Source: Candidatus Spongiisociaceae bacterium (lineage in GTDB: Bacteria > Actinomycetota > Acidimicrobiia > Spongiisociales > Spongiisociaceae). Taken from it: DNA of 64,000 nucleotides. Below the pieces are notes generated by a model. The model searched no databases and was not told the origin of the DNA. It was given only the letters and a program-made list of their open reading frames with translations. The stretch is from assembly GCA_965219685.1 (NCBI GenBank), contig CBDCOH010000002.1:3557064-3621063 (forward strand), given 5' to 3'. Both the position numbers and the translations under genes were made by a program. Numbering within the stretch: the stretch's first letter is position 1; each line of letters opens with the position of its first letter. This document shows positions 466-56,418 of the stretch, piece after piece.

Positions 466-726
466 CGCTCCAGCGGTCGGGGCGCGAGTCGCTCGGTAAC
501 TGGCGGGTCGGTCACCTGCTGGGGCGACAACCGCTTCTTCCAGGCGGATGCGCCGTCGCTGGCCGGGGTGCACCAGCCCGCCATCGACGCTCTTGCCGCC
601 TCCGGTGTAACCAAGGGATGCGACACCAACCCGCTGCGATACTGTCCGAACAAACCGGTCACCCGCGCTGAGATGGCTACCTTCCTGGCCCGGGCTCTCG
701 ACCTCCTCTTGAGTGGTGAGTGGTGA
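466..726 (+). pseudogene. Orphan 3' gene fragment: RCC1-like repeat remnant plus one Cys-containing SLH-like module, no start codon
   Basis: The frame is open from the stop at 463-465 to TGA at 724-726. It reads ..VTCWGDNRFFQADAPSLAGVHQPAIDALAASGVTKGCDTNPLRYCPNKPVTRAEMATFLARALDLLLSGEW*. The same GC..P..YCP..VTRAEMATFL module occurs in 27523-29915 and 31278-35557. No plausible start or RBS is present. The stop lies inside a GGTGAGT array. Confidence 0.4.
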
Positions 727-738
727 GTGGTGGTCGGC
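708..738 (+). repeat. Short heptamer array (GGTGAGT x2-3)
   Basis: gagtggtgagtggtgagtggtggtc read directly. It supplies the ..SGEW* tail and stop of the fragment at 466-726. Confidence 0.8.
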
Positions 739-891
739 GGCCTGTCGGTTAGAGCACTTGCCCTAACCGATTCGAGTACGAGCCGGAAGCGTCTACGAGG
801 CGTCATCGACGCCTTGGCCGGACACCAGGTCCAGGTGGGTTGGGTGGGTTCCTGAAGGCCGGTGTGGCTGGGCCGTGACTGCCCGTATGGG

Positions 892-1194
892 TTATGGGAG
901 GATGCTGTGGTCGCCGCAGCGGTGCCAAACGACGTGTCGGGTCCCGGTTCTGAGGGGTTGGCCCCATGAGAATGTTGCGCGTCCGTCGGGTGCCCAGGTC
1001 ATCTCGTAGAGGCCCGTTACCCCGCGTACTCGTTTGACGCGTAGCCCGGGTCGGAACCATGACTGTTCGCCTGCTTCCATTGACCGTAGGTCGGCGATGA
1101 AATCGGAAAGAGCTGCTTCGGGCCGCTTCTCCTGGGTGTTTGTGAGACGTTCGTAGTCACGCAGGAACGTAGGCGTTTCTTCATGTGTAGGCAT
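892..1194 (-). CDS. Putative RelE/ParE-superfamily-like toxin (100 aa)
   Basis: Small ORF 13 nt downstream of another small ORF. The segment LRVKRVRGVTGLYEMTWAPDGRATFSWG...HVVWHRCGDHSI resembles the beta-sheet core pattern of RelE/ParE/HigB-type toxins. The assignment rests on motif resemblance only. Confidence 0.4.
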   Translation of the reverse strand: MPTHEETPTFLRDYERLTNTQEKRPEAALSDFIADLRSMEAGEQSWFRPGLRVKRVRGVTGLYEMTWAPDGRATFSWGQPLRTGTRHVVWHRCGDHSILP

Positions 1195-1207
1195 TCGCGG
1201 AGGTCGG

Positions 1208-1396
1208 CTAGTCGCCGGCCTCAGCAGTTCTTCGCGATTGGAGACACGCGAGGAACTCCTCGTCCGTTGCGTGTAGGTGGCGCTGGCTTGTCTCGGAGTT
1301 GTCGGTCGGGTAGTGGTATTTGCCTGTGTCTGCGTCTATATCAGCGAGGGTCATCGTGGGTTCCTGGTCGATGCCGATGACAGGGGTAGGACTCAT
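1208..1396 (-). CDS. Putative cognate antitoxin (62 aa, acidic)
   Basis: Lies immediately upstream of 892-1194 on the same strand. It is small and acidic. No family was recognised. Confidence 0.3.
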   Translation of the reverse strand: MSPTPVIGIDQEPTMTLADIDADTGKYHYPTDNSETSQRHLHATDEEFLACLQSRRTAEAGD

Positions 1397-1522
1397 GAGT
1401 CGACCCTCCTCTCTTGCGGCGCCTTTCGAGAGTCTACTACACAGCGGGAAGGTGGATGGTGAGCGGTGGTTGGTGGTTGAGGGTGGTGGATCTGGTTCGG
1501 AGTGATCGTTTGAGGCCGGTGA

Positions 1523-1861
1523 TCATTCGCCCGATTCGGGTCTGTCTGTGATAGGAGGGGGCGGAGTTGTTCTTCTTGGGCGAGTCCGAGTCGTTGAGCG
1601 AGGACCAGGTGGGTCTCGGTCTCTGCGAGGGATCCGCTTGCGATTCCGAGGAACCGGAGGTATTCCTATGTGCTGCGCCGGGGCTCCTTCGGCGATGTTG
1701 GCTGCGACCGACGCTGCGGATCTGCGTAGTTGGCTGGTGATCCCGAACCTGTCCGAAGGCGGGAACCCGGTGGAGAGCCGATACGACATCTCGGCGAGAT
1801 CGATCGATTGCTGCCAGACCTCGAGATCGCGATGACTACTTACCATGGCTTCCCCCTCCAT
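1523..1861 (-). pseudogene. Four-helix-bundle protein (23S rRNA intervening-sequence protein family, TIGR02436-like) with an apparent 1-nt frameshift
   Basis: The N-terminal frame gives DLEVWQQSIDLAEMSYRLSTGFPPSDRFGITSQLRRSAASVAANIAEGA. The family-typical continuation EYLRFLGIASGSLAETETHLVLAQRLGL appears only in the +1 frame, after about 1670. Confidence 0.6.
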
Positions 1862-1954: not shown

Positions 1955-2057
1955 AGCCACCATCCACCACCCAACCATTCACCACTCACTATTCACCATT
2001 CACCACCCAACCATTCACCATTCACCGTTCACCACTCACTATTCACCATTCACCACT
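1955..2057 (-). repeat. Heptamer array, GGTGAAT/GGTGAGT on the minus strand (about 14 units, some degenerate)
   Basis: The plus strand reads ..ccattcaccactcactattcaccattcaccacccaaccattcaccattcaccgttcaccactcactattcaccattcaccact. It overlaps the last codons and stop of 2039-3145. Confidence 0.85.
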
Positions 2058-3145
2058 GTCCGGGTGGGGGGATCCTCGTGGCGGGACAGCTTCACGGGGT
2101 TTCCGGCCATCTGGAGCGTCGAGCCGTCCGGTAGTTCCACCTCCACGATCATGTTGCGGGCCTGCACCCCCGGGTCGGCCACCACCGCTCCGATGTCGTT
2201 GATCGGACCGCACGGAATCCCCGCCCGCAGCATGCGCTCCAGCCACACGGCGGCGACATCGCCCGAGAGGGCCTCTTCGAGCTCGGCGGCCAGTTCTTCC
2301 GCATTGCGGGTCCGATCGTCGTTGCTGGCGAACCTGGGGTCGTCCACCAGCGACGGTCGTCCCAATGTCTCGCACAACGTCGAGAACAGCCGGTCGTTGC
2401 CCGCCGCGATCACCAGGTGCGTGTCGGCCGCCCGGTAGGCGGCGAAGGGGGTGATCGACGGGTGGCGGCTGCCCAGCGGTCCCGGCACCACCCCGGTGGC
2501 GGAGTACCTGGCGATGGCGTTCTCGAGGATGGCCACCTGGCAGTCGAGCATGGCCACGTCCACGACCTGGCCCAGCCCGGTCCGTTCCCGGTCGTGGAGG
2601 GCCGACAGGATCCCGATCACCGCGAACATGCCGGCGGTGATGTCCCCCACCGAGGTCCCCACCCGGGTGGGGGCCCCTCCCGGATGGCCCGTGAGGCTCA
2701 TCAGCCCGCCCATCGCCTGCACGACCATGTCGTAGGCGGGCCGCTCCGAATACGGCCCGGTCCGCCCGAAGCCGCTGACCGCCGCGTACACCAGCCTGGG
2801 CCACCGCTCGCGCAGCACGTCCCAGCCGTAGCCCATCCGCTCCAGGGCGCCGGGCCGGAAGTTCTCCACCAGCACGTCGGCCTCCTCCACCAGCGCCTCG
2901 AACATCGCTCGGTCGGCCGGTTCCGCCAGGTCGAGGGCCACAGACGACTTGCCCCGGTTCAGCGACTCGAAATACACCGACCGGTCCCCCAGGAAAGGAC
3001 CGAAACCCCGCGCGTCGTCCCCCGTGCCCGGCCGTTCCACCTTTATGACCCGGGCCCCCAGGTCGGCCAGCACCATCGTGGCGTAAGGACCGGCCAGCAC
3101 CCGCGTCAGGTCCACCACCGTTATATCGGAGAGAGGACCGCCCAT
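2039..3145 (-). CDS. Family III CoA-transferase (CaiB/BaiF type), possibly 3'-truncated
   Basis: The N-terminus is MGGPLSDITVVDLTRVLAGPYATMVLADLGARVIKVERPGTGDDAR.. with family-typical motifs throughout. ATG at 3143-3145. The C-terminus ..KLSRHEDPPTRTVVNGE* runs into the heptamer array. Confidence 0.85.
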   Translation of the reverse strand: MGGPLSDITVVDLTRVLAGPYATMVLADLGARVIKVERPGTGDDARGFGPFLGDRSVYFESLNRGKSSVALDLAEPADRAMFEALVEEADVLVENFRPGALERMGYGWDVLRERWPRLVYAAVSGFGRTGPYSERPAYDMVVQAMGGLMSLTGHPGGAPTRVGTSVGDITAGMFAVIGILSALHDRERTGLGQVVDVAMLDCQVAILENAIARYSATGVVPGPLGSRHPSITPFAAYRAADTHLVIAAGNDRLFSTLCETLGRPSLVDDPRFASNDDRTRNAEELAAELEEALSGDVAAVWLERMLRAGIPCGPINDIGAVVADPGVQARNMIVEVELPDGSTLQMAGNPVKLSRHEDPPTRTVVNGE

Positions 3146-3231
3146 CGCGGATCACAGTAGCCGGTTGATGTTCCTCGGGCTCTTCGATCGGTATCGCTCC
3201 CTGCCAGTCCCGTGTCGAAGCACCAGGCACC

Positions 3232-3288
3232 TTTCAACATTCACCATCCCACCATTCACCATTCACCATTCACCACTCACCATTCAGC
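3232..3288 (-). repeat. Heptamer array (GGTGAAT/GGTGAGT on the minus strand)
   Basis: The plus strand reads ttcaacattcaccatcccaccattcaccattcaccattcaccactcaccattcagcc. It provides the ..RLNGEW* end of 3270-3788. Confidence 0.85.
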
Positions 3289-3788
3289 CTGGTCCTGATC
3301 TGATCGAAGTTCTCGCGGGTCTCTATGCGGAACTCACCGAAGCCGGTCGCTAAGGAACGGAGCCCGGAGGCCAAGGAATCGATCCTGGTTCTGTTGCCGT
3401 CGATCAGCTCGCGGTTGCCGTCGATCAGTGTGCGGTTGTGTTCGATCAGTTCGCGGTTGCGTCTGATCTGTGTGCTGTTGTGTTCGATCAGTTCGCGGTT
3501 GCGTCTGATCTGTGTGCGGTTGTGTTCGATCAGTTCGCGGTTGCGTCTGATCTGTGTGCTGTTGTTGTCGATCTTCTGGCCGTTGGCCTGGATCCGCTCG
3601 CGGTTGATCAAGATCTCCGCGTTGAGTTCTGCTGTCCTGGAGTCGATCTGCGCGGCCAGGGCGTGAGTCATTTCGCTGTTCCCGTCGAGCCTGCGCAGGA
3701 TCTGGAGCATGAGGCCCATCAGCATGACGATGATGACCAGCAGGCCGCTGATGAGAGTCAGGGTCGTAGCATCGACTTCCATAGACAT
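3270..3788 (-). CDS. N-terminally membrane-anchored coiled-coil protein with 14-aa (42-bp) tandem repeats
   Basis: A TM helix LTLISGLLVIIVMLMGLMLQIL is followed by NRTQIRRNRELIEH x3 and LIDGNRE variants. The upstream region is AT-rich. No family was recognised. Confidence 0.6.
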   Translation of the reverse strand: MSMEVDATTLTLISGLLVIIVMLMGLMLQILRRLDGNSEMTHALAAQIDSRTAELNAEILINRERIQANGQKIDNNSTQIRRNRELIEHNRTQIRRNRELIEHNSTQIRRNRELIEHNRTLIDGNRELIDGNRTRIDSLASGLRSLATGFGEFRIETRENFDQIRTRLNGEW

Positions 3789-3880
3789 AATGGTAGATAA
3801 CGAATGATAGATTGCAAAAAGAGGGTGTTATCAGGTGTTTTGGTGTTAGATGCTAAGTGTTCGGGGGGTCGCGGGGCGTC

Positions 3881-4247
3881 GGTGTCCCCGGTTTTCTTCG
3901 ATCGGTATCCCTCTCCTGCCCGTCCCATGGCGAAGCACCATCCACGAGCCACCACTCACCATTCACCATTCACCATTCACCATTCAGGCGGTTGTCCCCG
4001 GTTTTCTTCGATCGGGCTGTCTCTCCTGCCCGTCCCATGGCGAAGCACCATCCACGAGCCACCACTCACCATTCACTATTCACCATTCACCATCCCACCA
4101 CTCACCATTCACCACTCAGCCGGTGTCCCCGGTTTCTTCGATCGGGCTGTCTCGCCTGCCCGTCCCATGGCGAAGCACCATCCACGAGCCACCACTCACC
4201 ATCCCACCATTCACCACTCACCACCCCACCATTCACCATTCACCACT
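3881..4247 (-). repeat. Three tandem composite units (108-131 bp): a conserved ~75-nt core plus a heptamer array
   Basis: The core ggtgtccccggttttcttcgatcgg..tctcctgcccgtcccatggcgaagcaccatccacgagccaccactcacc, followed by (attcacc)n, starts at about 3881, 3989 and 4120. A diverged fourth copy lies at 3165-3288. Confidence 0.8.
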
Positions 4248-4324
4248 ACGGCCAGATCGTCGTCATCGGCTTCTGACACCAGCCCGCGAAAACAAACGTA
4301 ACAAGGCTCGTCGAGGGTGAATCC

Positions 4325-4523
4325 TGCGCGCAGCCACGAGCCACAAGCCACCATCCACGAGCCGCCATCCACCAGCCACAAGCCAACCAGCCACGGCATG
4401 AACAAGGATGCAGTTCACTGCTACGCGCCCAAACCGGTTACGGACCATTGATCACCTACCACGGGCTGCGAACCACAAGCCGCCAGCCACAAGCCGCCAG
4501 CCACAAGCCGCCAGCCACAAGCC
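4325..4523 (+). repeat. C/A-rich heptamer and 14-mer arrays (CCACAAG, CCACGAG, agccacaagccgcc x3)
   Basis: 4330-4395 reads agccacgagccacaagccaccatccacgagccgccatccaccagccacaagccaaccagccac. 4471-4523 reads aaccacaagccgccagccacaagccgccagccacaagccgccagccacaagcc. The complement is GGCTTGT/GGCTGGC. Confidence 0.8.
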
Positions 4524-4796
4524 ATCTCACTGCGGAAATGTCCCGGTCTGGACGGCCTCAGCCGTAGTATTGGGGGCGATCAGGAGGTGAAGTGGCTTGC
4601 GTTCGCGGCTCCGCGTCGGTACCGTTACCCCCACATGGCTGATCAGGCCCGCCGCGAAGTTGCGTTAAGCGACGCTTCACATAACATGCGCGTGGGTGGG
4701 CGGCGTGTTATATTGCCAGGGCTGGCCGGGATACGGGTTGTAACCAATTCCCTCTCGGCGGCCGACTAAGCATACGAAGGAAGGAAGGGAGGGCAA

Positions 4797-7151
4797 ATGC
4801 CCCTGATAGCAAGGCAGCGTTCGCGGTTGGCTGTGCTGGCCGTGCTCGCCTTGGTGGGTTCGCTTCTTGCCGTTTCTGCGGTGCCTGCGGTCGCCGCCGA
4901 GGACGACAAAGCGGAAGAAACGGCTATGTACTCAGCTTGCGTGGGTGCCGCTGAAGATGACGCCGGGTTCGCCGACATGAGAGGCAACTTCGCCGAAGAT
5001 GAGGCCAATTGCTTGGCTCACTATGGGATCACTCTGGGAACCGGAACCGATGAGGACGGCAACTCTGTGTACGGGCCGAGCAGTTCCGTTACCAGGTGGC
5101 AGATGGCTCTGTTCCTGAGCCGCGCGGCCGGTCCTGCGGGTATCGAGTTGCCGATGGCCTCGGATCAGATGCTGTCCGATATCGGCAGCTTGGACGATGC
5201 GACCCAGGACGCCATCAACCAGATGGCCGACTTGGGCATCATGGCGCCGCGCTCGTCCGGGATGTTCGATCCCAACGGAGTAGTGTCCCGTAAGGATATG
5301 GCTGTCCATCTGGTCGGCTTCCTCTCCAAGGCCCTTCAGGGTCCCGGCAGCGTTTCCCTTGAAAAGCTTCAGAGCGACGACGGTCTCGGTAGCGGCAAGT
5401 CGCCGTTCACCGACATCGGTGATGTCTCGGTCAGCGCTCACGAGGCCATCAGGGATGTCTTCGAGTTGGGCGTGGCCGAAGGTACATCGGCTACGGAATT
5501 CTCGCCTGATGCTCCGGTGCGCCGGGACCAGATGGCGGCGTTCATCACCCGGGCTTTGGCCCACACCAATGCCCGCCCCGCCGGTCTCACTGCACAGGCC
5601 GACGCCGGTGGCGACACCGGGACCGAGGTCTCGATCTCTGTGTCGGTCCGTGACGACGACCACGGAGTGGTGCCTGACGCACTGGTCGGCAGGATCCATA
5701 CCACCACCCCGGATACGGCGTTCGATGATGCCGGAGAGTGCGATGACGCAACCGGTGATTGCACGCTCAACACCGGCAACGAGGCCACGGATCCGGACGG
5801 CAACGCTGAGCTCCAGGTCACCCTTCCCGATGAGGCTGGTACCTTGACGGTATGGGTGTGGACCGGTGAGTCCGGTGACGAATTCGACGCCGACACCACC
5901 GACTCCGCGATGCTGGAGATTGACGCGGCTCTTCCGGCCACGACGGTGAAGGTCAGCAACGACAACAAGGCCGGGTCGCAGTTCCTCAAGTTCGGTGACA
6001 CGGTTACCTACACCTTGCAGGTTGTCAACAGCGAGGGTGACCCTGTTGCCAAGGCCGGCGCCAAGGTGCAGGTCACGGCTGACGTCCAAACTGTCACTGT
6101 CGCAGCAGAAAATACTCCTGCTCTGAGTGACAATGTTGTCACCGTTACCCCAGGCGGTGTCTCGAGTAGAACCATTAAGACTCACGAGACGGACGCGGCT
6201 GGACAGATCGAACTCTCGTTCACCCACGACGATCCCGATGGGGACACTGCAGGGAATCGGGTCCAGTTGAGCCTGGCGCTGGTTCTGACGGTTGATGGGG
6301 ATCTCGAGACGGTGTCGACTGCGGATCTCAACGACCATCTCGTTGCCACTGACACCCTTGCGAACACCCCCGACAACGGTGCGGACAACATCGGAGTCAT
6401 CTGGTCGGACGCCTCTTCGAGGGCCACGACCATTACGCTCGGTCAAGCGATCAAGTATCACGAGACCAATGCCAACGGGGTTCGCAACACGATCACGGCC
6501 ACGCTGGTTGACCAGTACGGTGATCCGGTCAGGGGCGTGAAGGTTGGACTCTGGTCCGGTGTGACCAATACCGATGCGACTACTACTGCCGCAGCGATTC
6601 TTCAGGGACTCGGTGGCGGTACTTCGGGCTCGCCGGGTGCATCAACCGACATCGCCGATAGTCGCACTACCAACAGGAATGGTGTAGCGACCAAGTCGTA
6701 TACCCGCAATGTTGTGGATGCGGCTCGGGAGCAGGTCGGTGCTTCGTACAGCGCGGTTGTCGGCTGTGATGACACAGACACCGGCGGCACCCCTCCCTGC
6801 ACCGATGTGGCTGATGCGATGGATATTGACATTGCCATCACCAACGTGGAAACTGGCGACAATGGTCTCGATCACTACTGGGCTACGCGGCTCGGTGTGG
6901 GTACGGTGAACGACCAGGTTGTCCTGGTTGCAGATACGGACAACAACACGGTTGTGGCCGGCACTGCGACTGCGCCGACGTTGGCGACCTACGATGCCAA
7001 TGATCACTTCCAGGTCGACGGCGCCAATACCACCATGGAAGCCTTCGAGAAGGCTCTCGGTGGCGCCGATGACAACGACACGGTGGATATCACTATCACG
7101 AGTACTGCTGATAATGCGATCAACACGTTCAACTTCGAGAACGTGGCCTGA
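4797..7151 (+). CDS. Secreted SLH-domain surface protein, paralog 1 (signal peptide, 3 SLH-like modules, Ig-like domains)
   Basis: RBS ggaagggaggg precedes the ATG. The signal peptide is RLAVLAVLALVGSLLAVSAVPAVAA. SLH-like modules include FADMRGNFAEDEANCLAHYGITLGT..VTRWQMALFLSRA. The AHTNARPAGLT hinge and the invasin/Big-like motif ITATLVDQYGDPVRGVKV are present. Confidence 0.85.
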   Translation: MPLIARQRSRLAVLAVLALVGSLLAVSAVPAVAAEDDKAEETAMYSACVGAAEDDAGFADMRGNFAEDEANCLAHYGITLGTGTDEDGNSVYGPSSSVTRWQMALFLSRAAGPAGIELPMASDQMLSDIGSLDDATQDAINQMADLGIMAPRSSGMFDPNGVVSRKDMAVHLVGFLSKALQGPGSVSLEKLQSDDGLGSGKSPFTDIGDVSVSAHEAIRDVFELGVAEGTSATEFSPDAPVRRDQMAAFITRALAHTNARPAGLTAQADAGGDTGTEVSISVSVRDDDHGVVPDALVGRIHTTTPDTAFDDAGECDDATGDCTLNTGNEATDPDGNAELQVTLPDEAGTLTVWVWTGESGDEFDADTTDSAMLEIDAALPATTVKVSNDNKAGSQFLKFGDTVTYTLQVVNSEGDPVAKAGAKVQVTADVQTVTVAAENTPALSDNVVTVTPGGVSSRTIKTHETDAAGQIELSFTHDDPDGDTAGNRVQLSLALVLTVDGDLETVSTADLNDHLVATDTLANTPDNGADNIGVIWSDASSRATTITLGQAIKYHETNANGVRNTITATLVDQYGDPVRGVKVGLWSGVTNTDATTTAAAILQGLGGGTSGSPGASTDIADSRTTNRNGVATKSYTRNVVDAAREQVGASYSAVVGCDDTDTGGTPPCTDVADAMDIDIAITNVETGDNGLDHYWATRLGVGTVNDQVVLVADTDNNTVVAGTATAPTLATYDANDHFQVDGANTTMEAFEKALGGADDNDTVDITITSTADNAINTFNFENVA

Positions 7152-7173
7152 TCGATCAGAAGCTCTAGAACAC

Positions 7174-7203
7174 GGAGGGTCCCGGCGAGAGCCGGGACCC
7201 TCC
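7174..7203 (+). terminator. 13-bp perfect stem-loop after paralog 1 (no U-tract)
   Basis: ggagggtcccggc-gaga-gccgggaccctcc, 23 nt after the stop. Confidence 0.5.
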
Positions 7204-7377
7204 CGCGTTCCGGCCCGCTCAACTGTTCACAACGCCTCGCTGACGGCCTTTTCGCCTCGAACCAAGGTCCGTCGCGCTGCTTACGCCTACCTAGTTCGGC
7301 GATGCTTTAGTTACCACGAATACGGCGGGTTTCCCGTTAGGCTGGGTGGCTAGACCACGGACAAGGAGCGAGACCTG

Positions 7378-9495: not shown

Positions 9496-9512
9496 CACCA
9501 CTCCACCCACCA

Positions 9513-9541
9513 GGTGCGGGGAGCCGACGCCTCCCCGCACC
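9513..9541 (+). terminator. 11-bp stem-loop after paralog 2 (no U-tract)
   Basis: ggtgcggggag-ccgacgc-ctccccgcacc. Confidence 0.5.
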
Positions 9542-9671
9542 CTCTCCCCCGCTCAGAACGTGAGGCGCAGGTCGTCGCTCCGGTCGTTCCGAGACTCACG
9601 TTCGCACGAGACCGCCAGGTCGTGTTGTGGGTGGCCTAACATGTGTTCACACGAGGAGAGGAGGGACTCCC

Positions 9672-11807: not shown

Positions 11808-12184
11808 TCTCCCCAGGACGCGCGCCAGCCGCCACGCGCCGGAGGAAGGGGCTAGTCAAGGCCGCCGGTTAGTCCTTATAGTTCGGACGAGAGCCAGAGA
11901 GAAGAACTTGCGTGACCGCGATCACCGAACGGCTGGTCGATGCCACAGAGCAGGCCCGCGAAGCCGCGTCCCACACCAATCTCGCGCAAGCCACGCACTC
12001 CTTCGAGAAACGGGTCAATCCAGGTCGGCTTCCGTATCATCGCGATCGTGATACACGCCAAGATCGCCTCGCAGCCCTAGTGTTAGCCTTCCTCAATCGA
12101 CCAACGCCGCCGCTGGCGGCTTGTAGATTCTGATGCGATAGTCTAACGTAGATAGCACTACATCATTGCGATGGAGAGGTAGAA

Positions 12185-13540: not shown

Positions 13541-13719
13541 ATAGAAACATGGAAGAGGAGCTTCATCGAGTGATGGTCGAGAAGAACCGTCCTCCGCACC
13601 GCACGGTGTTCAATCCGGGTGATGACCCGGAGGAATTCGGGCGTCGTGCTGCCCGAGATCTGTTCGATCGGTACATCAGGCACGCGACCAGCACCCCCGC
13701 GCAGTCTAAGAAGGGCTGA
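13537..13719 (+). CDS. Small translationally coupled ORF (60 aa), unknown function
   Basis: ATG 13537 overlaps the TGA of 12185-13540 (ATGA overlap). No family was recognised. Confidence 0.4.
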   Translation: MNRNMEEELHRVMVEKNRPPHRTVFNPGDDPEEFGRRAARDLFDRYIRHATSTPAQSKKG

Positions 13720-13761
13720 ACGCACCCACCAAACCTGGTACTTCGCTGCAAGGCAGGAGTC

Positions 13762-14769: not shown

Positions 14770-14869
14770 GGTGCTGGCCCGTTGAGCATCCACGGTAGGA
14801 GTTCGTCTTGCCGCTCGTGTAACACCCGCGGATAATTTCATCAGGGTGATTCCATCGGAGGGAGATGTG

Positions 14870-42647: not shown

Positions 42648-42956
42648 CTCCTCCGCTCCTTCTCCGTGTGCGGTTGCGCGATCCAATCTAGTGAGGGAAC
42701 CGCCCGGTGGCCCTCCGATGGCGTGCCGTGGTAGCCCGCCGAGGGGTCCGCACCCGCAGCTTGCACGAGGGTTCCGGCTGGTTGGAAGCACCGATCCCCG
42801 GAGCCCTGGCAGCGCGTTCGCAACGGAGTTCTGTATTCGCCCGAACTCCGTTGGCTGTGAGGGATGACGCAAGTTGCATCGCCGATAGGGAGACATCGGC
42901 AATAGCCCACTGTCAGATGTTGCCGAGGTCCGGTACAGTAGCTTCATAACATCGCC

Positions 42957-43268
42957 GTGGATGGGAGGTTCTCCCATTCACGAATGAAATCGCCGGTGGC
43001 ACACCAAGTGCTACCGCAATTCGTCGCCGGGGGCCCGCATCGCGGGCTCCCGCATTTTGTTGCCCACGGATGGCAAGGCAGCATGGACGTCGCCTTGGTG
43101 TTATCGAGCGATGCCGACCTGGTGCCGGCAGTCCGGGCGTTGCGCGACCACGGACTTCGCACGGTAAACGCATCATGGCGTGGTCACGGCCACGAGTTGG
43201 CCAAGGCATGCTGGGGATCATTTGACCTCGACGACATCGCAGGGAAGGTCATCCGCCCCGGTTCGTAA
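42957..43268 (+). pseudogene. Possible NYN/LabA-like domain C-terminal fragment
   Basis: DVALVLSSDADLVPAVRALRDHGLRTVNASW...ELAKAC resembles the end of NYN/LabA domains. The N-terminal part is absent. Confidence 0.3.
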
Positions 43269-50780: not shown

Positions 50781-51700
50781 CGATGCTGATGGAAGGGATC
50801 ATCACGCCGGTGATCACCCCGTTCCACGCCGACGGGAGCATCGACCGGCCCTCCTTCGGCGAGATGCTGGAACACCTCATCAGCGCCGGCGTGCACAGCG
50901 TCATCGTCGGGGGCAGCACCGGCGAGTTCTACGCCCAGACCCTCGCCGAGCGGATCGAGATGATGGAGTTCGGGGTCGACGTGGTCCGGCGGCGGATACC
51001 GGTCATGGCGGGTGTATCCGCCAGCCGCACCGAGGACTCCATCACCCTCGCCGCGGCCGCCCGGGAGCTCGGATGCGACGGCCTGCTGGTGGGGTCGCCC
51101 CCGTACGCGGCGCCCACCGAGAAGGAGAACGCCCTCCATGCCCTGCGGATCGACCGGGCGGCCCGCCTCCCGATCATGCTCTACAACTATCCGGCCCGGA
51201 CCGGCTCGGACATGGGACCGGAGTACCTGAGCAGGGTTAGCCGATCCCCCCGGTTCCGGGCCATGAAGGAGAGTTCCGGCGACATAGACCGCCTCCACCT
51301 GCTGGCCCGCGAGTTCCCGCACCTCTCGATCGCCTGCGGGGCCGACGACCAAGCGCTGGAGTTCTTCGTGTGGGGCGCCCGGTCGTGGGTGTGCGCCGGG
51401 TCCAACTTCCTGCCGGCGGAGCACATCGCCCTCTACGAGACGTGCGCCGTCAAGGGCGACTACGAGCTGGGACGGCGGGTCATGAAAGCCATGCTCCCCC
51501 TGATGTCCACCCTCGAGAGGGGTGGCAAGTTCGTCCAAGGCGTCAAGTTCGGCGCCCGGCTGGCGGGTTTGCCCGCCGGGGTGCCCCGCCAGCCGCTCCG
51601 GTCGCTGACCAAGGAGGAGAAGCGGGAACTTGAGCGGGTCATCCGCACGCTGAAGACCTCGGTGCGCAGCGCCCTGGACGCGGGGTCCGCCCATGCTTGA
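50777..51700 (+). CDS. Dihydrodipicolinate synthase / N-acetylneuraminate lyase family (class I aldolase)
   Basis: GIITPVITPFHADGSIDRPSFGEMLEHLISAGVHSVIVGGSTGEFYAQT..YNYPARTG.. ATGA overlap with the upstream gene. Confidence 0.8.
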   Translation: MTMLMEGIITPVITPFHADGSIDRPSFGEMLEHLISAGVHSVIVGGSTGEFYAQTLAERIEMMEFGVDVVRRRIPVMAGVSASRTEDSITLAAAARELGCDGLLVGSPPYAAPTEKENALHALRIDRAARLPIMLYNYPARTGSDMGPEYLSRVSRSPRFRAMKESSGDIDRLHLLAREFPHLSIACGADDQALEFFVWGARSWVCAGSNFLPAEHIALYETCAVKGDYELGRRVMKAMLPLMSTLERGGKFVQGVKFGARLAGLPAGVPRQPLRSLTKEEKRELERVIRTLKTSVRSALDAGSAHA

Positions 51701-53210
51701 TCTGCTGACCAGGGACGAGTACGCGGCGCTGTCGTCGGCGATGATCCTGCCCGCCAACGCGTTCGTCGACGGCAAGTTCCGCCCCGCCCTCTCCGGCGCG
51801 ACCTTCATGTCCGCCAACCCGGCGACGGGAGAGCCCCTTGCCGAGGTCGCCGCCTGCGGAGCCGAGGATGTCGACTTGGCGGTCCGCAAGGCGCGGGAGG
51901 CCTTCGACGACGGTCGTTGGGCCAAGCGGGCGCCGGCCGACCGCAAGGAGGTCCTCATCCGGCTGGTGAAGCTGATGACCCGCAACCGACGGGAACTGGC
52001 CGTGATGGAGAGCATCGAATCCGGGAAGCCGATCCGGGACTGCGACGCGATCGATGTCCCGGAGGCCATCGACACCATCAAATGGCACGCCGAGCTCATC
52101 GACAAGGTCTACGACAAATCGGCTCCGGTGGGCGACGATGCCATGGCGATCATCGTGCGAGAGCCCGTCGGGGTGGTGGGTGCGGTCCTCCCCTGGAACT
52201 TCCCGCTGCTGATAGCCGCCTGGAAGATCGGCCCGGCCCTGGCCGCCGGGAACTCCGTCGTGCTGAAGCCCTCCAAGCAGACCTCGCTCACCGCCCTGCG
52301 CCTGGCCGAACTGGCGATGGAGGCAGGCCTCCCGGACGGTGTCCTCAACGTGGTCACCGGCACCGGGACCGGGGTCGGGGAGCCGATCGGGCTGCACATG
52401 GACATCGACATGGTGACCTTCACCGGGTCGACCGGGACCGGTCGCAGGTTTCTGCGTTACTCGGCGGATTCCAACCTCAAGAAGGTCACCCTCGAGTGCG
52501 GCGGCAAGAACCCCTTCGTGGTGCTGGAAGGAGCGGAGGACCTGGACATGGTGGCCGAGCACTTCGTGACCGGCGCCTTCTGGAACATGGGGGAGAACTG
52601 CTCGGCCTCGTCTCGCCTGATCGTCCACCGAGCCGTGCGTGACGAACTGCTCGACCGGGTTCTGGCCCGGGCGGCGGACTGGCGGACCGGGGATCCGCTC
52701 GATCCCGTCAACCAGCTCGGGCCGCTGGTCGACGAGGCCCACCACGACAAGGTGTGCTCCTACCTACGGGCAGGTGCTGACGATGGGGCCGACGTCCTGC
52801 TGGGAGGCGAGTCGCTGGGCGGCCTGTACGTGGCGCCGACACTATTCGACGTCCCGAACCCGACGTCGGTCCTCATAACCGAGGAAATTTTCGGCCCGGT
52901 GGCGGCGGTTAGCACAGTGAACAGCAACGAGGCCGCGGTGCGGATGGCCAACGACACGCCCTACGGCTTGGCCGCCTCGGTGTTCTCCGGGAACATGCGG
53001 GAGGCCCTGCGCGGGGCGAGGGCCATCCGGGCCGGCACCGTCACCGTCAACTGCTATGGGGAGGGGGATATCTCCACCCCGTTCGGCGGCTACAAGCAGT
53101 CCGGCTTCGGCGGCCGGGACAACTCGGTATACGCCCACGAGCAGTACACCGAGCTGAAGACCATCTGGATCGACCTCAGCGACCGAGACCTGGAGGAGAC
53201 GATCGACTAA
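51693..53210 (+). CDS. NAD(P)-dependent aldehyde dehydrogenase
   Basis: ..VLPWNFPLL..FTGSTGTGRRF..LECGGKNPFVV..EEIFGPV.. motifs are present. Confidence 0.85.
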   Translation: MLDLLTRDEYAALSSAMILPANAFVDGKFRPALSGATFMSANPATGEPLAEVAACGAEDVDLAVRKAREAFDDGRWAKRAPADRKEVLIRLVKLMTRNRRELAVMESIESGKPIRDCDAIDVPEAIDTIKWHAELIDKVYDKSAPVGDDAMAIIVREPVGVVGAVLPWNFPLLIAAWKIGPALAAGNSVVLKPSKQTSLTALRLAELAMEAGLPDGVLNVVTGTGTGVGEPIGLHMDIDMVTFTGSTGTGRRFLRYSADSNLKKVTLECGGKNPFVVLEGAEDLDMVAEHFVTGAFWNMGENCSASSRLIVHRAVRDELLDRVLARAADWRTGDPLDPVNQLGPLVDEAHHDKVCSYLRAGADDGADVLLGGESLGGLYVAPTLFDVPNPTSVLITEEIFGPVAAVSTVNSNEAAVRMANDTPYGLAASVFSGNMREALRGARAIRAGTVTVNCYGEGDISTPFGGYKQSGFGGRDNSVYAHEQYTELKTIWIDLSDRDLEETID

Positions 53211-53252
53211 GGCTGGTGGCTGGTGGCTGGTGGCTGGTGGCTGGTGGCTGGT
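53211..53252 (+). repeat. (GGCTGGT)x6 heptamer array starting at the first base after the TAA stop
   Basis: Six perfect units were read directly. Confidence 0.95.
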
Positions 53253-53508
53253 GGCGCCATCAATGTGACTAAGGGCGATTGCGCTGATCGGGGGCAAGTG
53301 ACCTAACGAAGGCCTGCGGCGAAGCGGCAAACCCACGGCCCCGCCAGGAAGGCCGCCATGGTGGCGCCGATGGTGTCGAGGAACAGGGGCAGGTTCAAGG
53401 TCTGCGTGAAGAACCTCCCGATGAGGTTGATCCCGATTGCCACCGGAAGCCTATTTGACGTGTTTGTCTTTTCTTCACCATCCACTTGGCCCTGAGTGAC
53501 GACAAGCG

Positions 53509-53548
53509 GGGGAAAAACGCCCTGCCGCCATCGGATGGCGGCAGGGCG
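53509..53548 (-). terminator. Canonical intrinsic terminator for 53595-55688: 12-bp GC stem plus U-tract
   Basis: The minus strand reads cgccctgccgcc-atccgat-ggcggcagggcg followed by ttttt. Confidence 0.8.
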
Positions 53549-53594
53549 TAAGACGGAAGCCGAGTCTCTGGCCGGACATCGGCGTACCGGCCGG

Positions 53595-55688
53595 TCAGGG
53601 TCGTGTCAGCCTGCTCGTCTGCCGGTAACTGCCGTCCTCTTCCAATCTGGTCAGGATCACTTCATCCGAGCCCTGATTGTCGCCGGGGCCGTAGCTGAGC
53701 GTGATGTCGCTGATCCTGATCGTCCCGGCTTGCTGGAAGACATCAACGAAGCACTCCCGGGTTAGATCGGGACAGGCCCGGAGACCCTCGATGGCCACGC
53801 GGCCTGCCAGGTAACCCTCAAGGGAGATGAACCCGGGATCTGCGTCCGGATTGAACGCCGACAGAGCGGTCTGATACTCGCGGACCACCTGTCGGGTCGT
53901 GTCATCCGGCAAGGGCGTCACTTGGGTCACGTACACGCCGGCGCCGCTCTCGCCGAGTCTGCCGAGTTCAGCTGCCAGAGCCTCGGTGCCCACGAACGAC
54001 ACCGCCATGAAGACGGGATCCTGTTCCAGGCGATCTCGTAGCAGCTCGATAGCCGCCGCCGCCGGTTTGTGGGCGCCGATGATGATGACCGCTTCCGGCC
54101 GCGCTTCCGAGATTTGGAATGACGCGCGCCTTATAGCAGTGGTGTTTCTCCGGTAGAACTCCGTTGCCACCGGTTCCAAGCCGCGGCGGTCAAGAGCCTG
54201 GCGCACACCCTCCAGCCCGTCCACGCCGTAGGTGTCGTTCTGGTAGAGCACGGCGACGCGCCGGACGTTCAAGTCCTTGGTGAGGCGTTCCACCATCTGC
54301 TCGGTTTCCTGGTGGTATGAGGCTCGGAAGTTGATTGTATTGCTCAGTTCGGGATCCTCGCGCAGGAAGCGGGCACCCGTGAACGGGGCGATGAAGGGAG
54401 CGCCATCAGCCCTCGCCAGCGGAGCCGATGTCTTGGAGGTGGGCGTACCCACCGCACCGATCAGCCCGAACACGTTCCCACTCTCCAGCAGCCGCTGGGT
54501 GTTGACAAAGGCCCTTTGGGCGTCGTAGCCGTCATCCTGCGTCGGGAGGAGGGTCAAACTGCGCCCGTGGACGCCGCCGCCACGGTTGGCCTCTGCGAAC
54601 GCGGCCCTGATGCCCAATTCCATCCCCTGGCCCAATACCGCCGATGGCCCGCTCAGGGCGGCGGACTGTCCGAAGTGGATCGCCGTGTCGGTAACGCCCG
54701 GAACGCCAACGGCTTCCTCCGGGGGCATCGATCCTGTGGGCGCCGGAGTGCCCAGCACGGCGGCGGCCAGGCTATCGACTTCGAATAGGAGCCGGTGCAG
54801 GATTGCGTCGTTCTCCTCGATGAGGTCCCGTTCGCCGGCGACCAGGTTGAGCCGTTGTTCCAGCACACCGGAGAATGCTCCTTGACCTGTCTCCAGGATC
54901 CGGCGAGCTCCTGGAACTATCCGCGGATCCAATAAGCGCCCATGGTTTGCCGTCAGAAACTCAAGGTTCGACTGCAACCGATCTGAGGCTGCCACGTAAT
55001 TTTCTTCGGTCAATCCGATGTATGACGGGTCCGCCCCGAGGAGCGACGAGACCAGGAACGTCCCTGCGGCGCCGATATCAGCGGCGAGTCCCTCCATGTG
55101 AGTGTATCGGAACATGTCATCCCGTAAGGACCACCTGATTTCATCGCTGGTGAGATCGTAGAAGTGCTCATCCGCACTCTCGCTGCCGGCGACTGCCATG
55201 ACACGGGCAAGACTGATGATTTCGGCAACTGTCTCGGCGTTCTGTCCCAACGCTGCCAACACTCGGGGCCTTCCTGCGGTAATTTGGCTCGTGTTCGCAA
55301 CCAGGCGGTCCGCCTGAACTCTGATGCGACCAACCTGTTCGTCGTAGCCTTTCCCGGCCAGGCTGTCCAGTTGTCGGTATAGCCCAGCCCGATGAACGGC
55401 CGCCTCTCGGGCAGCCTCGGCAAGGCTCTCCCGGGTCATGCCAAGGTGGCTGGTGGTAGATGCGACGGCAGCCAACTCGCTGGCGTGCCTGGTTATCCAC
55501 AGCGTGGCCGCAAGCACCTCCGCGTCGTTGTTGGCGACATCGCCGGTATCGACAGTGTCTTGCGCGCTCAAACTGCCCATCGATAGCCCCCCGATGGTCA
55601 GGGCCAGCGCTACGCCCAAGGCTGCAATCACGCCAAGGCGTCCTCGTCTCGCTGTACTAGTCGCGTTCACTGCGGTTCTCCTCCTCAT
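53595..55688 (-). CDS. Membrane-anchored protein: ~330-aa helical N-terminal extension plus LivK-type (branched-chain amino acid) substrate-binding domain
   Basis: The C-terminal half reads GVTDTAIHFGQSAALSGPSAVLGQGMELGIRAAFAEANRGGGVHGRSLTLL..DDGYD..GLIGAVGTPT. The anchor is GVIAALGVALALTIGGLSMG. The start was set at ATG 55686-88 and has a weak RBS. Confidence 0.7.
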   Translation of the reverse strand: MRRRTAVNATSTARRGRLGVIAALGVALALTIGGLSMGSLSAQDTVDTGDVANNDAEVLAATLWITRHASELAAVASTTSHLGMTRESLAEAAREAAVHRAGLYRQLDSLAGKGYDEQVGRIRVQADRLVANTSQITAGRPRVLAALGQNAETVAEIISLARVMAVAGSESADEHFYDLTSDEIRWSLRDDMFRYTHMEGLAADIGAAGTFLVSSLLGADPSYIGLTEENYVAASDRLQSNLEFLTANHGRLLDPRIVPGARRILETGQGAFSGVLEQRLNLVAGERDLIEENDAILHRLLFEVDSLAAAVLGTPAPTGSMPPEEAVGVPGVTDTAIHFGQSAALSGPSAVLGQGMELGIRAAFAEANRGGGVHGRSLTLLPTQDDGYDAQRAFVNTQRLLESGNVFGLIGAVGTPTSKTSAPLARADGAPFIAPFTGARFLREDPELSNTINFRASYHQETEQMVERLTKDLNVRRVAVLYQNDTYGVDGLEGVRQALDRRGLEPVATEFYRRNTTAIRRASFQISEARPEAVIIIGAHKPAAAAIELLRDRLEQDPVFMAVSFVGTEALAAELGRLGESGAGVYVTQVTPLPDDTTRQVVREYQTALSAFNPDADPGFISLEGYLAGRVAIEGLRACPDLTRECFVDVFQQAGTIRISDITLSYGPGDNQGSDEVILTRLEEDGSYRQTSRLTRP

Positions 55689-55938
55689 GTCTGGGAAGGC
55701 TCTCACACCAGGATTCTGGTCCTCGAGTTCTATTGGGTCGAGCCTAGCCCGCAGCTGTCGGCGCTGTAGTGGCCGTGGCGGTACTGATCGCATCGTCAGT
55801 GGCCGGTTGGCAGGCCCTCGGGGACCTGAATGATCAGTGCGACGTTGAGTGACGAAACTCCATTCCGGCTCCGGCTGATCTCATCGAGCAAACAGGTTCT
55901 AGTAGTTCTTGAGGCGGAGATTGCAGGCTCATCGCGTA

Positions 55939-56289
55939 TTAGTGGGGAGTGACGGCCGTTAGCAGGGTCCAGTTCGGTTTCCCCGCGTACAGGAGGGCCC
56001 GGATTCGGTAGTTCGCGAAGTTGCGGAACCCGAATGCTGCTCGCTTGATTCTCTTGATGAGGTTGTTGAGGGCTTCGGTTGGTCCGTTGGTCACCTTGGA
56101 AATGTGCCAGTTGGTGATCTGGGGGGTCCAGCGGGCGATCGTTCGGCCCAGCTTGTGGATCTCCGGTGGGCAGGATTCGTCTTGGAGGTCGTCGGCGAGT
56201 TGGAGGATGTGGTTCGGAGGGCAACGGCTGGGCTGTCGATCCCATAGCGTTGGCCATCGACGAGTTCCCTCCTCGGCCTGACACGCCAT
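55939..56289 (-). mobile_element. ISL3-family transposase C-terminal remnant (about 116 aa)
   Basis: ..ITNWHISKVTNGPTEALNNLIKRIKRAAFGFRNFANYRIRALLYAG.. matches the ISL3 C-terminal signature. The N-terminal ~300 aa is missing, and the break abuts the heptamer array. Confidence 0.7.
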
Positions 56290-56299
56290 CGTACCATGT

Positions 56300-56418
56300 G
56301 GTGAGTGGTGAGTGGTGAGTGGTGAGTGGTGAGTGGTGAGTGGTGAGTGGTGAGTGGTGAATGGTGAGTGGTGAATGGTGAATGGTGAATGGTGAATGGT
56401 GAATGGTGAATGGTGAAT
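56300..56418 (+). repeat. Longest heptamer array: 17 perfect-phase units, a GGTGAGT block then a GGTGAAT block
   Basis: 119 nt in exact 7-nt phase were read directly. One GGTGAAT is interleaved before the switch. Confidence 0.95.

Follow-up and report, generated by a model that had tools for sequence, protein, structure and literature searches.

Gene-border arrays of G/T-rich heptanucleotides in a Spongiisociaceae genome: a polar, fast-changing repeat class, tentatively not read as dedicated terminators

Tandem heptamers recur between the genes of a 64,000-nt stretch of Candidatus Spongiisociaceae DNA (the window), with their G-rich strand in an apparently regular relation to the adjoining genes. 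Do they serve as transcript ends, e.g., through G-quadruplexes (G4s), or has some other process placed and oriented them? Tandem Repeats Finder and our own period-7 scan identified 14-17 period-7 arrays in the window against 0.35 expected by chance (first-order Markov simulations gave 0.35 arrays versus 14 observed), and the scan that gave these 14 returned no array of period 8-12. The arrays have 3 to 18 copies, occur only outside ORFs or within their last few codons, and are built of units that are without exception G/T-rich and C-poor: GGTGAGT, GGTGAAT, GGTGGCT (=GGCTGGT), TGTGGCT (=GGCTTGT) and GGTGGAT. The positions given in the initial annotation agree with ours within a few bases; three arrays at 3936-4249 and one at 22189 were absent from its list. 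The features are as follows, the strand being the one that carries the G-rich unit:

707-735, +: (GGTGAGT)3.3, forming the last codons and stop (..LLSGEW-stop) with which an SLH-like gene fragment closes at 726
1465-1479: small array
1958-2058, -: 13.7 heptamers (GGTGAAT/GGTGAGT/AGTGAGT), within which the CoA-transferase gene 2039-3145 (-) has its stop (tail ..DSGEW-stop); higher-order structure is present at 36 and 50 nt
3221-3287, -: 8.3 heptamers, in which the membrane coiled-coil ORF 3270-3788 (-) finds its stop (tail ..LNGEW-stop); a conserved module of about 56 nt lies 3' on the G strand
3883-4249, -: higher-order tandem repeat of 110-131 bp, holding arrays 3936-3989, 4046-4119 and 4176-4249, each with the module cttcgccatgggacgggcagg..gatcgaagaaaaccgggg next on the G strand
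4331-4394, -: 9 heptamers of GGTGGCT/TGTGGCT type within the 1 kb that precedes SLH paralog 1 (start 4797, +), C-rich on the sense strand of that gene
4473-4524, -: (CCACAAGCCGCCAG)3.6, i.e. 7.4 heptamers, 273 nt upstream of the 4797 start
19582-19617, +: GGTGGAT/TGTGGAT, 4.6 copies, upstream of the molybdopterin oxidoreductase gene (minus strand), 18-29 nt from candidate start codons at 19553-19564; the G strand is the gene's non-coding strand
20032-20063, -: GGCTTGT type, 4.6 copies, C-rich and G-poor in the leader of SLH paralog 5, ending 7 nt before its ATG (20071)
22189-22211, +: (GGTGGTC)3.3, 16 nt past the stop (22173) of SLH paralog 5, G strand sense
33807-33832, +: degenerate G/T-rich heptamer-like stretch (ACGAGTGGCTGGTGCTTGGTGGACAG), read directly, immediately past the end of gene 31113-33806 (+) and convergent with array 33854-33896
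33854-33896, -: (GGTGAAT/GGTGAGT)5.6; the LRR gene 34001-35713 (-) has its stop 104 nt away
41270-41337, both strands: convergent pair between a VOC gene (+) and an amidohydrolase gene (-), with (GGTGAGT)3.6 on + at 41270-41297, a 5-nt gap, and (GGTGAAT/AGTGAAT)4.4 on - at 41303-41337; both genes take their last codons and stop from the array at their own end
53209-53258, +: (GGCTGGT)6.4; the aldehyde dehydrogenase (ALDH) gene 51693-53210 ends in its native TAA, and the array begins at +1; neither strand of the unit contains a stop codon
53509-53548, -: canonical hairpin and T5 terminator downstream of gene 53595-55793 (-), outside the repeat family and included for contrast only
56296-56426, +: longest array, 17.9 copies (8 GGTGAGT, mixed units, 7 GGTGAAT); it precedes the start of ORF 55796-56284 (-) by 11-38 nt, its G strand being non-coding, and follows the stop of gene 56513-57820 (-) by 86 nt

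Several sequence-level claims of the initial annotation were borne out. Both (GGTGAGT)n and (GGTGAAT)n contain TGA in all three frames, and translation gives the array-encoded gene tails ..LLSGEW, ..DSGEW, ..LNGEW, ..VVSGEW and ..LVNGE, each followed by the stop. The stop-free complementary strand gives rise to spurious, overlapping ORFs (3804-4301, 3850-4320, 3857-4276 and 1864-2202). The GGTAGTGAGCGGTGGTT motif is present at 26176 (+) and 220 (-), within a 30-nt repeat.

It had also been proposed that an array following a gene carries its G-rich strand on that gene's sense strand. The window agrees with this orientation (about 11 cases versus 1), but the rule is too narrow and its link to the gene's own transcript did not hold up. 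Eight arrays are G-sense within 50 nt past a stop (707, 1958, 3221, 22189, the degenerate 33807-33832, 41270, 41303 and 53209), and three are C-rich in sense and precede a start by no more than about 40 nt (19582, 20032 and 56296). The single weak or contrary case is 33854-33896, which was assigned to the minus-strand gene at 34001; its G strand is indeed sense to that gene, but the stop of the plus-strand gene is nearer (47 nt), and to this gene the array is C-rich in sense. The leader arrays described at 4325-4523 are C-rich in sense; 4473-4524 does not abut the gene. A wider rule describes the arrays: whichever gene border is nearest, stop or start, it is adjoined by the G/T-rich strand's 5' end. 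That end sits where constraint from the nearest gene begins, i.e. at its stop (or a few dispensable C-terminal codons) or just upstream of an opposite-strand start, and gene orientation is irrelevant to array polarity.

In a census of 264 arrays from many other phyla, with genes called crudely as longest ORFs passing a GC3 filter, the gene border was nearer the G-strand 5' end in 162 arrays versus 47 (p = 5e-16). Borders within 50 nt numbered 155 on the 5' side versus 47 on the 3' side, and 84 of the 150 5'-side stops lay within 10 nt of the array. Viral contigs replicate the polarity (78 versus 42); the Acidimicrobiia subset alone gave 14 versus 8, not significant under these crude gene calls. 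Polarity was independent of stop-codon content, GC class and array length, and units without a stop on either strand retain it (31 versus 13), as exemplified by TAA followed directly by GGCTGGT in the window and TAG followed by TCAGTGG in locus L126. Because co-directional spacers contain as many G-sense as C-sense arrays (81 versus 81), which differ only in position (at the upstream stop or the downstream start), the placement rule is not tied to the gene's own transcript. Neighbouring arrays are convergent, with G-strand 3' ends facing each other, and hardly ever divergent (46 versus 2 and 24 versus 0; together 70 versus 2), and where a single array has a degenerate inverted partner, this lies 3' in 28 cases versus 5' in 1. 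Shared flanks, which point to exchange between arrays, are also found on the 3' side: a 3' module is common to four window arrays, and flanks similar within one locus were found for 14/341 (3') versus 6/579 (5') in the census.

Comparison with relatives shows that the arrays turn over very fast and are not conserved: at one gene end, relatives at 90-96% identity differ in unit, and other relatives carry none. At the 3' end of the amidohydrolase gene, the units are GGTGAAT/AGTGAAT in the window, GGTGTCA in L124 (96% identity), TTGTTAG in L162 (92%) and GCTAGTT in L163 (90%), and no array occurs there in L120 and L122. In these four array-bearing lineages the array starts 1-3 codons past the conserved YKGG, whereas array-less relatives have five more native codons after it; this recurrence could reflect selection for presence instead of a hotspot. 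At position +1 after the ALDH stop, the window has GGCTGGT, L126 has GGTCAGT, and L125 has no array; in L125, about 230 nt (a block of G arrays, unique sequence and a C array) stand in place of 38 nt including eight codons. Sequences of 81 kb from five relatives contain no arrays, and 123 kb from the sub-lineage of the window contain about 30. Within one genome, the same two or three units recur at many sites.

Could the arrays act through RNA structure? The initial annotation suggested, as inference only, that two-tetrad G4s could form in mRNA 3' ends; that they substitute for U-tract terminators is a reading that we consider highly improbable. In its favour, G-sense arrays start at, or within 10 nt of, stop codons, and the related GGGAATC and GGGGAYT repeats form G4s in vitro (Rehm et al. 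2015; PMC4692102). In the ViennaRNA G4 model, two-tetrad G4s are possible only for GGNGG units such as (GGCUGGU)n and (GGUGGAU)n; for the main units, which have only GG tracts with 5-nt loops, (GGUGAGU)6 and (GGUGAAU)6 are predicted to give no G4 (MFE about 0 to -2 kcal/mol), contrary to the suggestion. Furthermore, the same-site units of relatives are poorer in G (TTGTTAG, GCTAGTT), the polarity extends to the non-coding strand upstream of genes and comes with equal G-sense and C-sense frequencies, and the four-unit preference reported for G4-forming repeats is not seen among arrays of 3-18 copies. A hairpin element, REP-like or a bidirectional terminator or insulator lacking a U-tract, is a less far-fetched though still unlikely alternative. 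Its basic unit would be a 5' G/T array, a spacer and a 3' C/A array, single arrays would be decayed pairs, and RNA of either strand would form a long hairpin, terminating transcripts or shielding mRNA 3' ends in a genome where canonical terminators are few. The pair at 41270-41337 is predicted to fold at -37.8 kcal/mol (+ transcript) and -26.4 kcal/mol (- transcript), and a pair is kept at this amidohydrolase/VOC junction in three relatives despite differing units. Convergent pairs prevail across phyla, and many single arrays have the degenerate 3' partner. The reported scarcity of U-tract terminators in the window was confirmed, terminator-like sites showing no excess over shuffles (8 versus 10.5 and 4 versus 6.7), as was the one at 53509-53548; transcript starts and stops at the repeats of Rehm et al. 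exceed those at controls (PMC4692102). However, C-then-G pairs would fold equally well and are almost absent, most window arrays are partnerless (53209, 56296, 1958, 3221, 707), arrays also lie 1-40 nt from start codons, where a terminator would be harmful, no T-run follows the 3' arm (by composition), and close relatives are entirely without arrays.

Synthesis of G/T repeats primed by a resident 3' end, added or copied at DNA breaks or insertion junctions, would run the G strand 5' to 3' away from the retained gene, and two healed ends would yield a convergent pair, sometimes with captured DNA. This would explain the orientation-independent polarity and the 70 versus 2 convergent pairs in one step. 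Native sequence was replaced, not merely inserted into (4-8 terminal codons and the whole spacer), the arrays of the L125 block enclose about 70 nt of unique DNA that is new there, arrays border variable gene content (the ALDH/D-Ser-dehydratase island, the L163 insertion), they share sequence on the 3' side, and viral contigs are also array-dense. We nevertheless regard it as rather doubtful, since no such activity is known in bacteria; the window genes include no candidate enzyme (reverse transcriptase, primase-polymerase), single arrays retain 100-250 nt of apparently ordinary spacer at their 3' side, and several arrays sit at exactly +1 of an intact native stop without erosion. The arrays might also be periodic binding sites for a protein of OB-fold or ring type (Csp, S1 or HutP-like) whose footprint is 7 nt, or form a network in which the G/U-rich arrays of 3' UTRs base-pair with complementary C/A-rich arrays in the leaders of other genes, a post-transcriptional arrangement proposed for TAACTGA repeats (MacGregor 2015). 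Complementary units do recur in 3' UTRs (G) and leaders (C) at many loci of one genome, and C-strand RNA is predicted to be fully unstructured (MFE 0.0). However, same-gene units differ among close relatives, which is hard to reconcile with a specific partner, the associated genes are functionally unrelated, and the stop-codon adjacency is left unexplained, making this reading very improbable.

We therefore tentatively favour hypermutable, concertedly evolving repeats with a polarity at the DNA level over dedicated terminators. Slipped-strand mispairing would make arrays grow and change, as would exchange or templated copying from one dispersed array to another (concerted evolution). A strand-asymmetric DNA process might let an array advance in the 5' direction of its G strand, replacing neutral DNA, until it is halted by purifying selection at the gene border. 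We know of no enzymology that gives such polarity, and degenerate in-phase units on the two flanks showed no asymmetry (117 versus 113, p = 0.71), nor did a phase-tolerant version of this test of polar growth. Array polarity would then account for the orientation rule, the GEW- and NGE-stop tails, the leaders free of G and the convergent pairs that form hairpins, none of which would be a sign of a dedicated G4 or terminator function; any effects on expression (all-frame stops, unstructured leaders, hairpins) would be secondary.

The window arrays are heptanucleotide long simple-sequence repeats, adding further unit types to a known class. In cyanobacteria such repeats are known as STRR, a formal likeness that was recognized earlier and holds, and they are said to have been found over-represented in large, GC-rich genomes by Mrazek in 2007. 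The unit of the window is not special to its genome, (GGTGART)4 being present in more than 119 loci from many phyla. The same placement rule and convergent pairs were described for GGGAATC and GGGGAYT repeats, previously known with this placement from Xanthomonas and Nostoc, for which no function was found (Rehm et al. 2015; PMC4692102); the window arrays are alike in both respects and differ in their units. In that study 83% of the repeats keep their context between two Xanthomonas species (PMC4692102), and this conservation, together with the excess of transcript starts and stops, leaves room for a function. In the group to which the window genome belongs, the arrays represent a repeat bloom in one sub-lineage of the sponge-type Acidimicrobiia.

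Between 707 and 56426 of the window, Tandem Repeats Finder and a separate period-7 scan identified heptamer arrays of 3 to 18 copies, 15 of them clear and two small. Both scans match the coordinates of the initial annotation, whose list holds for the sites it gave and lacked four arrays, of which three lie at 3936-4249 and the fourth at 22189-22211. By one criterion, 14 period-7 arrays were observed in the window against 0.35 expected from first-order Markov simulations, and the same criterion returned none of period 8-12. On the G strand (the G/T-rich, C-poor strand), the units are GGTGAGT, GGTGAAT, GGTGGCT (=GGCTGGT), TGTGGCT (=GGCTTGT) and GGTGGAT; several unit families occur side by side in one genome, and two or three units are reused at many sites. 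The window, part of a 4.39-Mb contig, has a G+C content of about 65%, yielded zero tRNA genes and zero Rfam families in the respective scans, and encodes SLH/Big_1 surface-protein paralogs, LRR proteins, ABC transporters and assorted enzymes; for two of its proteins the closest named relatives are from Acidimicrobiia MAGs and 'Candidatus Spongiisocius sp.'. A large cell-envelope gene cluster occupies 4797-24598 and 27826-35713, with six co-directional SLH + Big_1 paralogs (~700 aa) followed by SLH and leucine-rich-repeat proteins.

All window arrays lie outside Pfam-supported genes or overlap just their last codons. They affect annotation in two ways, both anticipated by the initial annotation and borne out in the window: their stop-free strand generates false ORFs, and they rewrite C-terminal tails (..GEW* and ..NGE*). 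The mechanical ORF 41319-42977 (-), of 552 aa, also exceeds the real gene; its homologues (~440 aa) cover 79% of it, which places the true start near 42640. The placement rule, that the 5' end of the G strand abuts the nearest gene border (stop or start), is followed by about 11 window arrays and contradicted by 1.

Window arrays and the gene borders that they adjoin
G-sense (G strand reads as the gene's sense), overlapping or directly following the stop of:
array 707, SLH-like fragment
array 1958, CoA-transferase gene
array 3221, ORF 3270-3788
array 22189, SLH paralog 5
degenerate stretch 33807-33832, gene 31113-33806
array 41270, VOC gene
array 41303, amidohydrolase gene
array 53209, aldehyde dehydrogenase (ALDH) gene
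C-sense (complementary strand reads as the gene's sense), before a start:
array 20032, ending 7 nt before the ATG at 20071
array 19582, 18-29 nt before the start of the molybdoenzyme gene
array 56296, 11-38 nt before the start of ORF 55796-56284

The array at 33854-33896, which had been proposed to follow a gene, is a weak case, being 104 nt from the stop assigned to it and 47 nt from the stop of the other gene. Five arrays at 3936-4524 lie inside a 1-kb upstream region and abut no gene. With regard to phase-variation repeats (contingency loci), which sit in an ORF or promoter of surface or virulence genes and switch expression by copy number, arrays 4331-4524 and 20032 are upstream of SLH surface-protein paralogs, and metabolic genes flank most arrays. 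Convergent pairs (a G array followed by a C array, with the G-strand 3' ends facing) are found at 41270-41337, at 33807-33896, and in 19582/20032, which share one spacer; such pairs are also present in the relatives' loci L124, L125 and L162.

Other repeats accompany the arrays or lie within genes of the window. A 56-nt module is common to four arrays, on their G-strand 3' side: the ~56-nt module (CCTGCCCGTCCCATGGCGAAGCACCA.. on the + strand) plus heptamer array forms three tandem copies at 3883-4249, a higher-order tandem repeat of 110-131 bp, and a fourth copy of module plus array is located at 3200-3225, downstream of ORF 3270-3788. That ORF (-), a membrane coiled-coil protein, contains in-frame 21/42/84-bp tandem repeats at 3391-3606; in-frame 30/60/90-bp repeats occur at 18403-18698 in the N-terminal part of the molybdopterin oxidoreductase ORF (-), and a near-perfect 63-bp tandem repeat (6.7 copies, 98% identity) at 26581-27002 inside the coiled-coil ORF 26541-27182 (-). 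A weakly heptamer-like 30-nt repeat (GGTAGTGAGCGGTGGTT[A/G]GCGTTAG..) occurs at 207-236 (-) and 26176-26205 (+), after two gene fragments, with 93% identity between copies. Just downstream of the 1958-2058 array, ORF 1523-1861 (-) has a match to the first half alone of PF05635, the family of 23S rRNA-intervening-sequence proteins, which includes the Avd proteins of diversity-generating retroelements.

We scanned the seed (GGTGART)4 in one genome per species and obtained at least 119 loci which, among the matches listed, came from Bacteroidota, Planctomycetota, Acidobacteriota, Gemmatimonadota, Chloroflexota, Mesorhizobium and others. Overall, (GGTGART)n arrays were found in many unrelated phyla, on at least 119 genome contigs (L001-L119) and on 35 viral contigs (L127-L161). 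About half of the 8-kb loci among the matches listed held additional heptamer arrays. Arrays were masked symmetrically, ORFs were called crudely, and each array was oriented by its G-rich strand. Among the matches listed, the gene border was nearer the 5' end of the G strand in 162 arrays versus 47 (p = 5e-16), and 84 of the 150 stops on that side were at most 10 nt from the array. This polarity was present, among the same listed matches, in every GC class and at every array length. Sorted by the stop codons in their units, the arrays had it where the G strand alone carries a stop and where both strands or neither do; the 13 arrays whose unit has its only stop on the C strand had the same trend (8 vs 4, not significant). 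In co-directional spacers of the matches listed, G-sense and C-sense arrays were equally frequent (81 vs 81). The G-sense ones sat at the stop of the upstream gene, at a median distance of 4 nt, and the C-sense ones near the start of the downstream gene, at a median of 39 nt. Oppositely oriented neighbours among the matches listed were arranged G-then-C in 46 cases and C-then-G in 2. The 35 viral contigs, which are dense in heptamers (145 arrays in 337 kb), replicated both the polarity (78 vs 42) and the pairing (24 vs 0), giving 70 convergent versus 2 divergent pairs in the listed genome matches and viral sets together. Apparently single arrays often carry a degenerate inverted copy of the unit, on the G-strand 3' flank in 28 cases versus 1, and in the wider set the 3' flanks within a locus resemble one another more often than do the 5' flanks.

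Several explanations of this polarity were weighed. Stop-codon selection is rejected: the polarity is found in units without a stop on either strand (31 vs 13 among the matches listed), and GGTCAGT arrays follow stops although their TGA sits on the C strand only. Avoidance of Shine-Dalgarno decoys is weakened by the polarity of low-GC loci, mostly apparently from Bacteroidota, a phylum in which Shine-Dalgarno sequences are largely unused. Cyanobacteria are not known to have Rho. Models in which the arrays load Rho (rut sites) are weakened by equal placement in the cyanobacterium Nostoc (PMC4692102) and by C-rich arrays in leaders, where rut would harm. The RNA polymerase elemental-pause motif (G-10 Y-1 G+1) is matched by GGTGAGT and GGCTGGT, whereas GGTCAGT, GGGAATC and GGGGACT do not match it. 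Orientation by replication strand is countered by the interleaving of both array orientations while the cumulative GC skew climbs steadily across the window. The E. coli Chi octamer GCTGGTGG lies inside (GGCTGGT)n; it is absent from the other units, there is no replication-biased orientation, and we treat it as a coincidence. Polar growth with degenerate units at the old end gave a first signal that proved to be an artefact of repeat-phase anchoring, and symmetric tests revealed nothing of asymmetric decay of array ends. For a mobile element with a conserved core, BLAST searches with spacers returned self-hits only, save the local 131-bp repeat. Just one array had a tRNA gene within 50 nt, namely tRNA-Phe at a distance of 1 nt.

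A structural role of the transcribed arrays was considered as well. The initial annotation had suggested two-tetrad G-quadruplexes (G4) at mRNA 3' ends, a reading that does not hold for the main units. In the ViennaRNA G4 model, (GGUGAGU)n and (GGUGAAU)n form no G4 and have minimum free energies (MFE) near zero, and a two-tetrad G4 would be permitted for GGNGG units only. The window units have GG only, lacking G tracts of three or more, and their copy numbers show no preference for four; tracts of at least three G define a quadruplex-forming subclass, not heptamer repeats as a whole. C-strand RNA is predicted to be unstructured (MFE 0.0), and modelled single arrays reach 0 to -8 kcal/mol. The convergent pair at 41270-41337 has a predicted fold of -37.8 kcal/mol in the + transcript and -26.4 kcal/mol in the - transcript, but no T run follows it. 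The arrays are not among the sites reported by a terminator scan of the window and do not have the GC-rich hairpin followed by a U tract of intrinsic terminators; U-tract terminator-like sites in the window are in no excess over shuffles. The single clear case that had been pointed out, at 53509-53548, is a real hairpin with T5 on the minus strand.

The closest likeness is to the heptamers of Rehm et al. 2015 (PMC4692102), GGGAATC in Xanthomonas and GGGGA(C/T)T (GGGGAYT) in Nostoc. These tandem 7-mers are scattered over the genome, mostly between genes and with strand asymmetry, and lie 'almost exclusively' nearer the 5' neighbouring ORF whichever its orientation. They frequently form convergent inverted pairs and vary in length and sequence among relatives; they were not tied to the function of nearby genes, and that study established no function for them. 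The window arrays share the tandem 7-mers, dispersion, intergenic site, gene-border placement, convergent pairs and variation among relatives. They differ in carrying GG where the Rehm repeats carry GGG or GGGG, which makes them poor G4 formers, in lacking the four-unit preference of those G4-forming repeats, in conservation among relatives (83% for the Rehm repeats between Xcc and Xac, far lower for the window arrays), and in their actinobacterial host with several unit families per genome. According to the summaries of Mrazek 2007 in PMC4679880 and PMC4692102, heptanucleotide repeats have been recognised since 2007 as the commonest long bacterial microsatellites, being the most abundant class of LSSRs (5-11 nt); these are typical of large, GC-rich genomes of non-pathogens including Actinobacteria, are taxonomically sporadic, and are proposed to originate by polymerase slippage. 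That survey was statistical, and its summaries do not describe gene-border polarity or unit turnover at orthologous sites. Because of the anatomy shared with the Rehm repeats, and because heptamers are the commonest long repeats of this kind, we regard the window arrays as another member of the heptamer class.

The cyanobacterial STRR heptamers, known since 1990 and serving mainly as fingerprinting targets, are reportedly, after Mazel et al. 1990, CCCCAGT, TTGGTCA and CAACAGT. They are likewise dispersed, intergenic tandem heptamers, and a single base separates TTGGTCA (=GGTCATT) from GGTCAGT, a unit of relatives L125 and L126, but the window arrays differ from these repeats of heterocystous cyanobacteria in unit sequence, GC context and phylum. 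In the account of PMC4692102, STRR denotes three heptanucleotides of Calothrix PCC7601 (Mazel et al. 1990). MacGregor 2015 (PMC4679880) described TAACTGA direct repeats in Beggiatoaceae, Cyanobacteria and Bacteroidetes, with a patchy distribution across phyla and a position that is often just a few nucleotides before a start codon. These are also intergenic tandem heptamers; unlike the window arrays, they place the stop-containing strand directly upstream of starts, have 2-6 copies and are A/T-rich. With REP/BIME elements and intrinsic terminators the arrays have in common an intergenic position beside gene 3' ends and convergent pairs that can fold into long hairpins, but they lack a conserved palindromic core, a U-tract and a shared spacer, and are mostly single and unstructured. 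The unique spacers within pairs, and filled sites with loss rather than duplication of the target, separate them from REP/BIME and MITE-type elements.

Comparison of orthologous gene ends revealed rapid turnover of the units. At a single gene end, four different units occur among relatives of 90-100% identity.

Junction of the amidohydrolase and VOC genes (protein identity to the window in brackets)
Window: GGTGAAT/AGTGAAT facing GGTGAGT
L124 (96%): GGTGTCA facing GGTGCTA
L162 (92%): TTGTTAG facing GGCTGGT
L163 (90%): GCTAGTT, then two inserted genes
L120 (89%): no array, spacer 21 nt
L122 (84%): no array, spacer 1 nt

In all four array-bearing lineages the amidohydrolase arrays start 1-3 codons past the conserved YKGG, whereas array-less relatives have five native codons there; the arrays have thus replaced a dispensable C-terminus and now supply the stop. 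At position +1 after the ALDH stop, the window has GGCTGGT, L126 has GGTCAGT and L125 has no array. In L125, 38 nt, among them the final 8 codons of an FmdA-like gene, have given way to a block of ~230 nt that consists of G arrays, ~70 nt of unique sequence and a C array; the site is empty in the window and L126. Lineages differ sharply in array density: the window and five close relatives contain about 30 arrays in 123 kb, compared with zero in 81 kb from five other relatives; a metagenome scan for same-species copy-number comparison gave only relatives of at most 88% identity, all without arrays.

Gene content varies beside some of these sites. The insertion in L163 (5055-5905) comprises two small genes, one of them DUF6036, between amidohydrolase and VOC genes that abut in all other relatives, and directly adjoins the heptamer array. 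The segment from ALDH to a D-Ser-dehydratase-like gene contains a Peripla_BP_6 fusion gene and a 162-aa ORF in the window (53211-56512), an OLD-family nuclease and a UvrD helicase, which look like a Gabija defence pair, in L125 (11387-15042), and small ORFs only in L126 (11309-12757); heptamer arrays stand at its edges in the window and L126.

The data fit hypermutable heptamer microsatellites in concerted evolution within a genome, with a DNA-level polarity in which the G/T-rich strand runs 5' to 3' away from the nearest constrained sequence. Since this polarity is indifferent to gene orientation, stop content, GC class and phylum, and G-sense and C-sense arrays are equally frequent, we do not regard the arrays as dedicated 3'-end signals of the genes before them; convergent pairs may act as hairpins or terminators. 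The polarity might arise by directional encroachment of arrays, limited by selection, or by the synthesis or copying of G/T-rich heptamers primed from 3' ends at breaks or at the junctions of insertions. Any mechanism must fit arrays that begin exactly at a stop codon or at the limit of a dispensable C-terminus, four units at one gene end, the 70 versus 2 pairs, the parity of G-sense and C-sense arrays, and the occurrence in many phyla and viruses. This lineage adds two constraints, namely poor G4 formers under the same rule, which argues against G4 formation as the cause of the placement, and very fast unit turnover at fixed gene ends. We consider it rather unlikely that a conserved DNA transaction not described before, whether end-primed synthesis or directional encroachment, underlies the polarity across phyla and viruses, irrespective of gene orientation, and the near absence of divergent pairs; if this were true, the arrays would mark sites of past breakage or insertion and evolve as one genome-wide family.
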